A stretch of DNA of 64,000 nt from Escherichia coli. Lineage in GTDB: Bacteria; Pseudomonadota; Gammaproteobacteria; Enterobacterales; Enterobacteriaceae. Below are positions 59,785 to 61,364 of the stretch, piece by piece. A program made the position numbers and the translations under genes. The stretch lies in the NCBI RefSeq assembly GCF_009931435.1, contig NZ_CP043414.1. One strand, written 5' to 3'. The notes below the pieces were generated by a model, which saw only the letters and a program-made list of their open reading frames with translations, searched no databases and had not been told where the DNA came from. Each line of letters starts with the position of its first letter. Within the stretch, counting starts at the first letter, position 1.

Positions 59785-60240
59785 TTATCCGATCAGGTTT
59801 TCTGTGGCTTCCGCTTCCAGATACGGCACACCGTTGATGTTGACGAATTTCGGACTGGTCACGAAATATTTGATTTTGTGCGTGGTCACACCGCCACCTT
59901 TCGGATCAATATCCAGCAGGTTGCTGACCTGCAATTTATTGCCGAACGTCTCCACCTTCATTTCTTCGCTACTGGCTTTGGCATAGAAAAGAAAATCAAG
60001 TGGGGGAAGCCCACGCCATGAACCCGCTGCACGGGCTTTGGCTGTCAGCACCTGAAGTGTTTTTGAACTGACTTCAATTTCCCCTTCGGCGGCAACATCG
60101 CCATCCACATACCCGTCAGGGACGCCACGCGTCTGGGCGGCAGCGCTGTTATCCGTAATATCGAGCGTGATTTTCTCGATATGGATCAGATCGCCGTCCA
60201 TATAGGTGTCAAACGACATACCCGAAATACGTTTAGTCAT
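59785..60240 (-). CDS. Putative tail tube protein (by position and size, 151 aa)
   Basis: Second gene of a pair upstream of the lysis and chaperone genes; no similarity to P2 FII visible by eye. Confidence 0.35.
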   Translation of the reverse strand: MTKRISGMSFDTYMDGDLIHIEKITLDITDNSAAAQTRGVPDGYVDGDVAAEGEIEVSSKTLQVLTAKARAAGSWRGLPPLDFLFYAKASSEEMKVETFGNKLQVSNLLDIDPKGGGVTTHKIKYFVTSPKFVNINGVPYLEAEATENLIG

Positions 60241-61364
60241 GCTGTGGCCTCCAGACTGGCATCCAGTAACAGACTGATGGTGATTTGCAGCGGCACTTCC
60301 CAGGTGCGTACCACAATGTAAATATCCACCGCCTTTTTGTTCTTCCAGACAATGGTCACATCACCATCCTGCGGCGGCTTCACCTCACCCGGAAATGACA
60401 CACCGTTAATGCTGGCCGCTGTGGACATTTCACGCAGTGGACGGGCAAACAGTGTCTGATGTGCGGCGATACTTCCCGGCGTACTGTTCAGCGAGCGATC
60501 CGCGATTTTGCTGATAGCCAGCAGACGAACACGGCGGGCAGCTTTATCCGCAACGCGCAGGGTTTCAATCGACTGGTAATCGCCGCCCTCAACATCCAGC
60601 GTGCGGCCATCTGCCCAGTAAAAACCGTCATAATCCGGGTACCACATCGGCACACTGAAACGCTGTGCTTCAAGCGCCTGAAGTGTGGCCAGTTCCAGCA
60701 CTTCTCCGGTACCATCAACCGGCATGTCATCACTGCCAAGATTCATCAGAGCACCGGTTTTAACCCGCGCCGGACTGTCAGCAATGGTTACCGCACGGCT
60801 ACACAGGCGACCAGCCAGCACACCCGGTTCATTTCCCCACAGGCGGGGAACCAGCTGCACCGCCTTTTCTGCAATGCCATCCTGAAGGGTGGCCATGCGT
60901 ACCAGATAATCCGCCTGGGCTTCTTCGTCCTGCATTCCCTGTGCGGCCAGAATGAACCACACCCAGCGGCCATATTTTGAAATCAGGGTGGATCGTAACG
61001 TCACGGCCTGATTTACCTGCGCTTTAGCGGTCACATCGTCAGACAGCACCACACCTTCCACAGAGCACACCACCTGCGCGGCCAGAACCGCTTTCACCCA
61101 GGCATCTGCCTCCGCGTCAGTTGGCAGGACATGAATGAACCCCCACCAGTTCTGGCCAGCGTTCGCCAGCGCAGCCAGAACATCATTTTTCAGCGGGCTG
61201 GCTTCCTCGCCCAGCAGTGAATCAAAATCACTCTGGGCATTCACCGCTAGCGTTTTCCCCACATTTTTGGTACCCGAACCGATAAACAGCAGTGTGCGTT
61301 CCACTTCATTGGTTTCACCCAGCAGCTGATTTACCTGGTTTACGGTCACAATTGGCCAGGTCAT
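60237..61364 (-). CDS. Putative tail sheath protein (by position and size, 375 aa)
   Basis: Only sheath-sized gene in the cluster, directly upstream of the tube-like gene; a contractile tail is implied by the W/J/I baseplate genes; no similarity to P2 FI visible by eye. Confidence 0.35.
   Translation of the reverse strand: MTWPIVTVNQVNQLLGETNEVERTLLFIGSGTKNVGKTLAVNAQSDFDSLLGEEASPLKNDVLAALANAGQNWWGFIHVLPTDAEADAWVKAVLAAQVVCSVEGVVLSDDVTAKAQVNQAVTLRSTLISKYGRWVWFILAAQGMQDEEAQADYLVRMATLQDGIAEKAVQLVPRLWGNEPGVLAGRLCSRAVTIADSPARVKTGALMNLGSDDMPVDGTGEVLELATLQALEAQRFSVPMWYPDYDGFYWADGRTLDVEGGDYQSIETLRVADKAARRVRLLAISKIADRSLNSTPGSIAAHQTLFARPLREMSTAASINGVSFPGEVKPPQDGDVTIVWKNKKAVDIYIVVRTWEVPLQITISLLLDASLEATA

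Follow-up and report, generated by a model that had tools for sequence, protein, structure and literature searches.

Two adjacent minus-strand genes in the analysed stretch of Escherichia coli DNA (the window, 64,000 nucleotides in length) encode proteins of 375 and 151 amino acids, located at 60237..61364 and 59785..60240, respectively. At a probability of roughly 0.94, these are the contractile sheath and the inner tail tube of an intact P2-like temperate phage of the HP1 subgroup (ESSI-2/Quadragintavirus), integrated between mntR and mntS. The assignment is supported by protein family and predicted fold, by synteny and purifying selection, and by a nearly identical sequence in phages isolated as plaque formers. 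By analogy with characterised contractile tails, we infer that the pair would be incorporated into the virion and that the tail would contract. Neither the identity of the two proteins nor the deep split between the HP1 and P2 tail modules is new; both are already known and published, and the feature itself is ordinary.

Coding evidence, families and predicted folds

The two genes were found with the lengths, coordinates and strand given in the initial annotation. As read from the sequence, the start of the 375-aa gene overlaps the stop of the upstream gene in an ATGA motif, and an identical overlap joins the 375-aa gene to the 151-aa gene. The two starts are preceded by the Shine-Dalgarno sites AAGGGG and GGAGG, respectively, and the combination of overlaps and ribosome-site motifs suggests that the sheath and tube genes may be translationally coupled. 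Comparison with Escherichia phage ESSI2_ev129 gave a dN/dS of 0.03 for the 375-aa gene and zero amino-acid changes for the 151-aa gene, while comparison with Cronobacter phage ESSI-2 gave 0.13 for each of them. Homologues are numerous, with 1189 and 840 retrieved for the 375-aa and 151-aa proteins, respectively, in a word-indexed protein search; at E ≤ 0.001 relatives of the 375-aa protein numbered only 209 among 1.84 billion cluster representatives. Given the dN/dS values of 0.03–0.13 and the many homologues, the two open reading frames are, on sequence grounds, real genes under purifying selection.

The 375-aa protein is of the HP1 orf23 type. It matches Pfam DUF2586 over residues 3–369 of 375 with 452 bits (cut-off 26.4; E = 2.5e-135), and PHROG 907, 'tail sheath', over residues 1–372 (E = 1.2e-163). 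An AlphaFold2 model built from a diverse alignment reached a pLDDT of 92.4 and a pTM of 0.90, with low confidence limited to the termini: residues 1–12 fall below 50, the 11–20 block averages 54 and the last few residues average about 61, a pattern that would be compatible with flexible arms swapping strands between subunits in a handshake mesh. When the model was compared with the PDB using Foldseek, 77 chains were returned at E ≤ 0.001, down to 9e-12, and the best 50 of the 77 were all contractile-tail or injection-system entries with a probability of 1.00 and TM values of 0.5–0.65. The sheaths of phage 812, PVC, AFP, phage Milano, diffocin, cyanophage A-1(L) and phiCD508 are represented, as are the injection systems of Streptomyces and Anabaena. 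Thus, structure prediction, which had been proposed as a check, yielded a contractile-sheath fold for the larger protein and a tube fold for the smaller one, and the conserved sheath core of the T4 gp18 core/pyocin/AFP/PVC/T6SS superfamily is present in the predicted 375-aa model. Among the best structural matches, the AFP Afp2-4, PVC Pvc2-4 and diffocin CD1363 sheaths (E = 3e-11 to 1.4e-7, TM about 0.5–0.65) are of similar size (350–390 aa) but only 10–15% identical in sequence to the 375-aa protein, and they belong to systems that have no capsid, in contrast to the complete phage found here. At the sequence level, searching the PDB with either protein singly gave noise only. The family profile of the 375-aa protein had a sole match below 0.1, a weak one to the phage 812 sheath (E = 0.029), in which N- and C-terminal segments were aligned in the same order.

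The 151-aa protein, of the HP1 orf24 type, covers positions 1–134 of the 134 in Pfam Phage_HP1_Orf24 (PF10772, formerly DUF2597) with 214 bits (cut-off 25), and matches PHROG 1182, 'tail protein', over residues 1–151 (E = 2.7e-75). Its model (pLDDT 83.7) consists of a beta-sandwich and one long helix, the arrangement of sandwich and flanking helix that characterises the tail tube/Hcp fold. In Foldseek, the tubes of phage 812 and diffocin ranked highest, ahead of siphophage, monocin, R-pyocin and Mu tube proteins and of Hcp, and a search of PDB sequences with the tube family profile gave no match. Foldseek scores in the range of the tube proteins were also obtained for a few small barrels that are unrelated, and the model-based evidence for a tube identity is for that reason good rather than overwhelming. 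Ten prophage proteins, the 375-aa and 151-aa proteins among them, were also scanned against NCBIfam, without a match.

The tail-tube fold is common to terminators, tube initiators and distal tail proteins, and the fold alone can consequently not single out the major tube protein. It is in this light, and with the only moderate fold scores of the 151-aa model in mind, that a mixed reading was weighed, in which the 375-aa protein is the sheath and the 151-aa protein a minor tube-fold paralogue, such as a tube initiator or another baseplate-proximal component. This is very unlikely. The 151-aa gene is the sole tube-fold candidate adjoining the sheath gene, to which it is putatively coupled in translation; its length of about 150 aa, its position and the 74% mean column identity of its family alignment fit a major tube protein; and major tube proteins (XkdM, phage 812, diffocin, phiCD508) are among its best structural matches. 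Moreover, the terminator is encoded by a separate gpR-like gene, and the HP1_ORF34 and PHROG 1677 genes downstream of the fibre genes are free for initiator roles. The 151-aa protein is most probably the major tube subunit.

Bacterial genome annotations understate the function, as seen from the Pfam DUF label, from the PGAP labels ('DUF2586 domain-containing protein' for the 375-aa gene and 'phage protein' for the 151-aa gene) and from the name 'topoisomerase' given to homologues in some records. A full-text literature search for 'DUF2586' found no paper, one on the virion proteomics of phiO18P-type phages was equally fruitless, and neither proteomic data nor a solved structure was retrieved for any member of DUF2586 or Phage_HP1_Orf24. 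The function that the bacterial annotations understate is already assigned in phage-specific resources (PHROGs) and in published work, and the prophage, with a complete and conventional contractile tail module, carries little weight beyond the matter of annotation.

Relation to the P2 sheath and tube

The initial annotation had seen no resemblance to the P2 sheath FI and tube FII, and this was upheld by BLASTP, by Pfam searches at E ≤ 10 and by hhalign. The best BLASTP alignment between the 375-aa protein and FI had an E-value of 1.0, and none was obtained between the 151-aa protein and FII. P2 FI itself matches Phage_sheath_1 (PF04984) and Phage_sheath_1C (PF17482), with 117 and 82 bits, together with Gp18_domIII_N, and FII matches Phage_tube (PF04985) with 204 bits; the 375-aa and 151-aa proteins matched none of these families even at E ≤ 10. 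The profile searches suggested earlier against sheath and tube families thus gave DUF2586 and Phage_HP1_Orf24 instead of Phage_sheath or Phage_tube. In hhalign, the 375-aa family profile reached a probability of 0.1% with FI as a single sequence, and a 56-member alignment of the family reached 2% with a nine-member FI alignment (from phages 186, KS14, RSA1 and SEN5, a Mannheimia phage, a Zymomonas record in the phage collection, WO and ep3), and the tube families reached 0.1–0.3% against FII. These comparisons were run on shallow FI and FII alignments and without predicted secondary structure, and the null results consequently do not contradict the link reported in the literature, where the sheath, tube, sheath initiator, gpU and spike of the HP1 subgroup, at about 13% identity, are connected to P2 by HHpred only and not by PSI-BLAST (PMC10612066).

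The same separation is seen in the distribution of homologues. A tblastn search with the 375-aa protein retrieved 76 phage records, and the 60 listed all belong to the HP1 subgroup, including HP1, HP2, K139, Kappa, F108, phiO18P, phi3, Smhb1, ACA2 and ESSI-2. FI retrieved 552 P2-type records, a set separate from the first among the records listed. The sheaths of the HP1 and P2 subgroups are reported to meet only at the base of the myoviral radiation (PMC10612066). The absence of any visible likeness to FI and FII is therefore attributed to a lineage that has diverged beyond the reach of the sequence and profile comparisons run here. In short, the 375-aa and 151-aa proteins share function and fold class with FI and FII but are members of the HP1 orf23 and orf24 families, not of the FI and FII families. 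The sheath and tube of R-type pyocins are, like FI and FII, listed as lacking detectable sequence similarity and fall in different Pfam families. Peduoviridae thus contain two tail-module lineages, a P2 type and an HP1 type, whose sheath and tube proteins are related here by predicted fold only and in the literature by HHpred (PMC10612066).

Gene arrangement and protein length also distinguish the two lineages. In P2, FI, FII, E, T, U and D make up an operon of their own, located after the baseplate and fibre genes; here, the sheath and tube genes directly follow R and S. FI and FII measure 396 and 172 aa, as compared to 375 and 151 aa. The earlier view of 375 aa as a small size for a sheath was wrong, since P2 FI is itself only 396 aa long and the published ESSI-2 sheath, a one-domain (type 1) model, has 375 aa. 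The ESSI-2 (375 aa), phiO18P (370 aa) and P2 (396 aa) proteins were modelled as one-domain contractile sheaths by Evseev et al., as were all the Peduovirinae sheaths in that work, and the smallest phage sheath reported there has 341 aa (PMC9230969).

The prophage and its closest relatives

Over 98% of its length, the 13-kb region at 51000-64000 shares 95.4% identity with Escherichia phage ESSI2_ev129 (Peduoviridae, Quadragintavirus), and Cronobacter phage ESSI-2 is a more distant relative of the same region. In ESSI2_ev129, the tail sheath gp16 is 99.5% and the tail protein gp15 100% identical to the window proteins. The sheaths of ev040 and ev015, of the same ESSI2 group, are 98.9% identical, and all three phages match the gene order of the 13-kb tail region. 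The element described here differs from this group in being an integrated prophage, between mntR and mntS, and in an additional 411-aa ORF. This orphan ORF lies at the tail end and had no match in Pfam, PHROGs, PADLOC or the phage collection. ESSI-2 infects another host genus and has been described as a myovirus (PMC6969025). Its sheath (ADX32371, 375 aa) and tube (ADX32392) are 80.5% and 70% identical to those in the window, with the same lengths and the same synteny, and its sheath gene shows about 77% nucleotide identity.

The full extent of the element is seen in a 99.4%-identical copy in E. coli MFDS1016424, where it spans about 31 kb between mntR and mntS and carries P2-type capsid, scaffold, terminase, portal, ogr, replication, repressor and integrase genes. 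Such elements are rare: 24 of 5426 complete E. coli genomes contain at least 80% of a 20-kb query, in agreement with a published comment on the scarcity of ESSI-2-like prophages in this species (PMC6969025). The prophage extends beyond the end of the window, and the locus could in principle be a degraded prophage or a tailocin-like remnant whose genes no longer make a phage tail. That is highly improbable, considering that all tail ORFs are intact, that a dN/dS of 0.03 relative to ESSI2_ev129 does not indicate relaxed selection, that the matching genome retains the full set of capsid, scaffold, terminase, portal, replication, repressor and integrase genes, and that phages of about 95% identity have been isolated as infective temperate coliphages (PMC6969025).

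Membership of an intact phage in the HP1 subgroup, which has been described as split from the P2 subgroup within Peduoviridae (PMC10612066), is supported by the neighbouring genes: gpM, gpL and gpR score above their Pfam cut-offs and gpS just below, and gene order equals that of HP1 orf19-31. The agreement with Haemophilus phage HP1 is gene for gene, down to the insertion of the lysis genes behind the tube gene and to the A AAA AAC site discussed below. HP1 orf23 and orf24, the founders of DUF2586 and Phage_HP1_Orf24, are 52% and 59% identical to the window sheath and tube, respectively. K139, phi3 and phiO18P share the order through the tape measure gene. Carriers of the same sheath family have also been visualised, with contractile tails observed by TEM for ACA1/ACA2 (PMC10612066) and Smhb1 (PMC8537503), which indirectly supports virion incorporation and contraction in the present case; the sheath identities to the 375-aa protein are 38.6% for ACA2 and 45.8% for Smhb1.

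Organisation and assembly of the tail module

The sheath gene sits in a tail module together with tube, terminator, frameshifted chaperone, tape measure and baseplate genes. On the minus strand the order is terS (gpM), a gpL-like gene, a gpR-like gene, a gpS-like Neck1 gene, sheath, tube, lysis genes, chaperone and tape measure, followed by DUF2590 in the gpW position, gpJ-like and gpI-like genes, fibre, fibre assembly and three baseplate/hub proteins. The gpL-like head completion protein or head-tail adaptor (Ad1) is encoded at 62568..63071 (Phage_GPL 1.2e-38; PHROG 71; also named by PGAP, whose start in the near-identical genome corresponds to position 63020). It is followed by the gpR-like tail terminator at 62065..62571 (168 aa; P2_Phage_GpR 1.3e-22; PHROG 65 'tail terminator' 5.8e-32) and by the gpS-like tail completion or Neck1 protein at 61361..62068 (235 aa). 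The latter matches PHROG 26, 'tail completion or Neck1', at 3.8e-32 and Pfam Phage_tail_S at 4e-05, with 23.9 bits just below the 24.3 cut-off.

The initial annotation had left two alternatives, and the first, divergent sheath and tube proteins, stands on family, predicted fold and HP1 synteny. The second would have the two genes encode neck or head-tail joining proteins, with the genuine sheath and tube encoded at another site. It accords with their location after the gpL-, gpR- and gpS-like genes and with the lack of sequence similarity to FI and FII, but is scarcely conceivable and is rejected because adaptor, terminator and Neck1 are already assigned to those three separate upstream genes, while the best 50 Foldseek matches of the 375-aa model are those to contractile tails and injection systems, no other annotated sheath or tube candidate exists in the complete prophage of the 99.4%-identical genome, and the two homologues are annotated as (putative) tail sheath and tail tube in the records of HP1, K139, phi3, phiO18P and ESSI-2.

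Downstream of the sheath and tube, the tail assembly chaperone is encoded at 58403-58663 (Phage_TAC_10 6.6e-37). A slippery heptamer, A AAA AAC, was read from the sequence at the end of this gene (58412-58406) and is kept in ESSI2_ev129 and in HP1 orf26. A 64-aa extension ORF in the -1 frame at 58212-58406 (DUF6890 / PHROG 7050) abuts the tape measure gene. A -1 slippery site with an extension ORF is a hallmark of long-tail modules. The 655-aa tape measure protein is encoded at 56248..58215 (PhageMin_Tail 4.8e-22; PHROG 28 1.5e-103), and the DUF2590, gpJ-like and gpI-like baseplate wedge genes occupy 54161..56269, with Pfam matches to DUF2590 (1.3e-45), Baseplate_J (1.3e-29) and Tail_P2_I (3e-04) and with PHROG 6 and PHROG 1228. 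Next come a tail fibre (52543-54150), a fibre assembly protein (51956-52543), the PHROG 1677 protein (51241-52002), an HP1_ORF34 baseplate protein (50724-51269; Pfam HP1_ORF34 2e-53) and a hub/spike protein (49021-50724), all on the minus strand. Weak Phage_base_V and Gp5_trimer_C Pfam matches fall within 49021..54150, as do PHROG 2258 baseplate, PHROG 105 and PHROG 8239.

From established knowledge of contractile tails, assembly would begin with tube hexamers that polymerise on the hub of the baseplate and enclose the tape measure protein, aided by the frameshifted chaperone. The one-domain sheath would then polymerise round the tube in a high-energy, extended metastable state, with flexible N- and C-terminal arms connecting neighbouring subunits. 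The gpR-like terminator would cap the tail, and the gpS- and gpL-like proteins would connect it to the head. Receptor binding by the fibres would rearrange the baseplate and cause the sheath to contract, forcing tube and spike across the cell envelope. The assembled sheath-tube lattice might differ from those of P2/pyocin and T4 in some respect that matters for the mechanism, for example inter-subunit handshake topology or helical parameters, as the lineage joins other sheaths only close to the base of the myoviral radiation (PMC10612066). Such a difference is nevertheless very unlikely, and the monomer models of the 375-aa and 151-aa proteins gave no sign of an unusual lattice.

A lysis cassette at 58807..59775 separates the tube and chaperone genes, as assigned from Pfam, PHROG and the ESSI2_ev129 annotation. 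It comprises, on the minus strand, a holin (59473-59775; Phage_holin_3_2 6e-39; PHROG 175 holin), an M15 endolysin (59145-59486; Peptidase_M15_4 3e-10) and an Rz-like spanin (58807-59145), the embedded Rz1-like gene of which extends to 58647. The fibre genes of HP1 differ from those found here, and so does the lysis enzyme, an M15 peptidase in this prophage as compared to the SAR muraminidase reported for HP1 (PMC7312051).

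Chaperone gene and putative frameshift site

The tail assembly chaperone gene of the prophage encodes an 86-aa protein and, together with an extension ORF in the -1 frame, occupies 58212-58663 on the minus strand. A slippery heptamer of the classical -1 type, A AAA AAC (58412-58406, minus strand), sits at the end of the gene, immediately ahead of the chaperone stop codon, and is kept in both Escherichia phage ESSI2_ev129 and orf26 of the Haemophilus phage HP1. The 64-aa ORF that continues the chaperone gene in the -1 frame belongs to DUF6890 (PHROG 7050), and is listed by PGAP as a gene of its own with a CTG start. 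The extension is probably made by programmed frameshifting, in a manner analogous to P2 E/E' and lambda G/GT.

Lysis cassette and gene starts

A lysis cassette comprising a holin, an M15 metallopeptidase endolysin and Rz/Rz1-like spanins is found at 58647-59775 (minus strand). It separates the tube gene from the chaperone gene, the location it also has in HP1. The HP1 endolysin is of another type, a SAR muraminidase (PMC7312051), so the content of the cassette has been exchanged while its position was retained.

The mechanical ORF list places some starts upstream of the likely start. The endolysin (59145-59603, minus strand) is 152 aa by this list vs 113 aa in PGAP and ESSI2_ev129, and the gpL-like gene (62568-63071, minus strand) is 167 aa vs 150 aa in PGAP. 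The same upstream over-extension was observed for the gpJ-like, gpW-position, gpI-like and PHROG 1677 genes.

Insertion site and tail-end region

With mntR and mntS as its chromosomal neighbours, the prophage extends from ~46400 of the window to beyond 64000 (17323-48376 in L004). It is rare in E. coli, with at least 80% of a 20-kb query present in 24 of 5426 complete genomes, in keeping with a proposal in the literature that ESSI-2-like phages originate from Citrobacter, E. albertii or Salmonella.

A 411-aa ORF (46825-48060, plus strand) is located in a stretch of 36% GC that separates mntR from the prophage's tail end. Its product carries a Cys-rich motif, CxxCxxC ... CxxC, near the N-terminus; it gave no match in Pfam, PHROGs or PADLOC, nor any tblastn match among 50,697 phage records. 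In related E. coli prophage copies the same 20-kb region apparently holds different genes (AAA family ATPase, HAD family hydrolase), and it may represent a variable cargo or moron hotspot.

Labels of sheath and tube homologues

Annotation noise surrounds the sheath family and the P2-type tube across public records. Sheath homologues are labelled 'topoisomerase' in Yersinia phage vB_YenM_324, 'topoisomerase IA' in Kluyvera georgiana, 'tail fibers protein' in vB_ValM-yong1 and 'tail fiber protein' in VcP032, and the FII tube gene appears as 'head closure' in the RefSeq records of P2 and phage 186.
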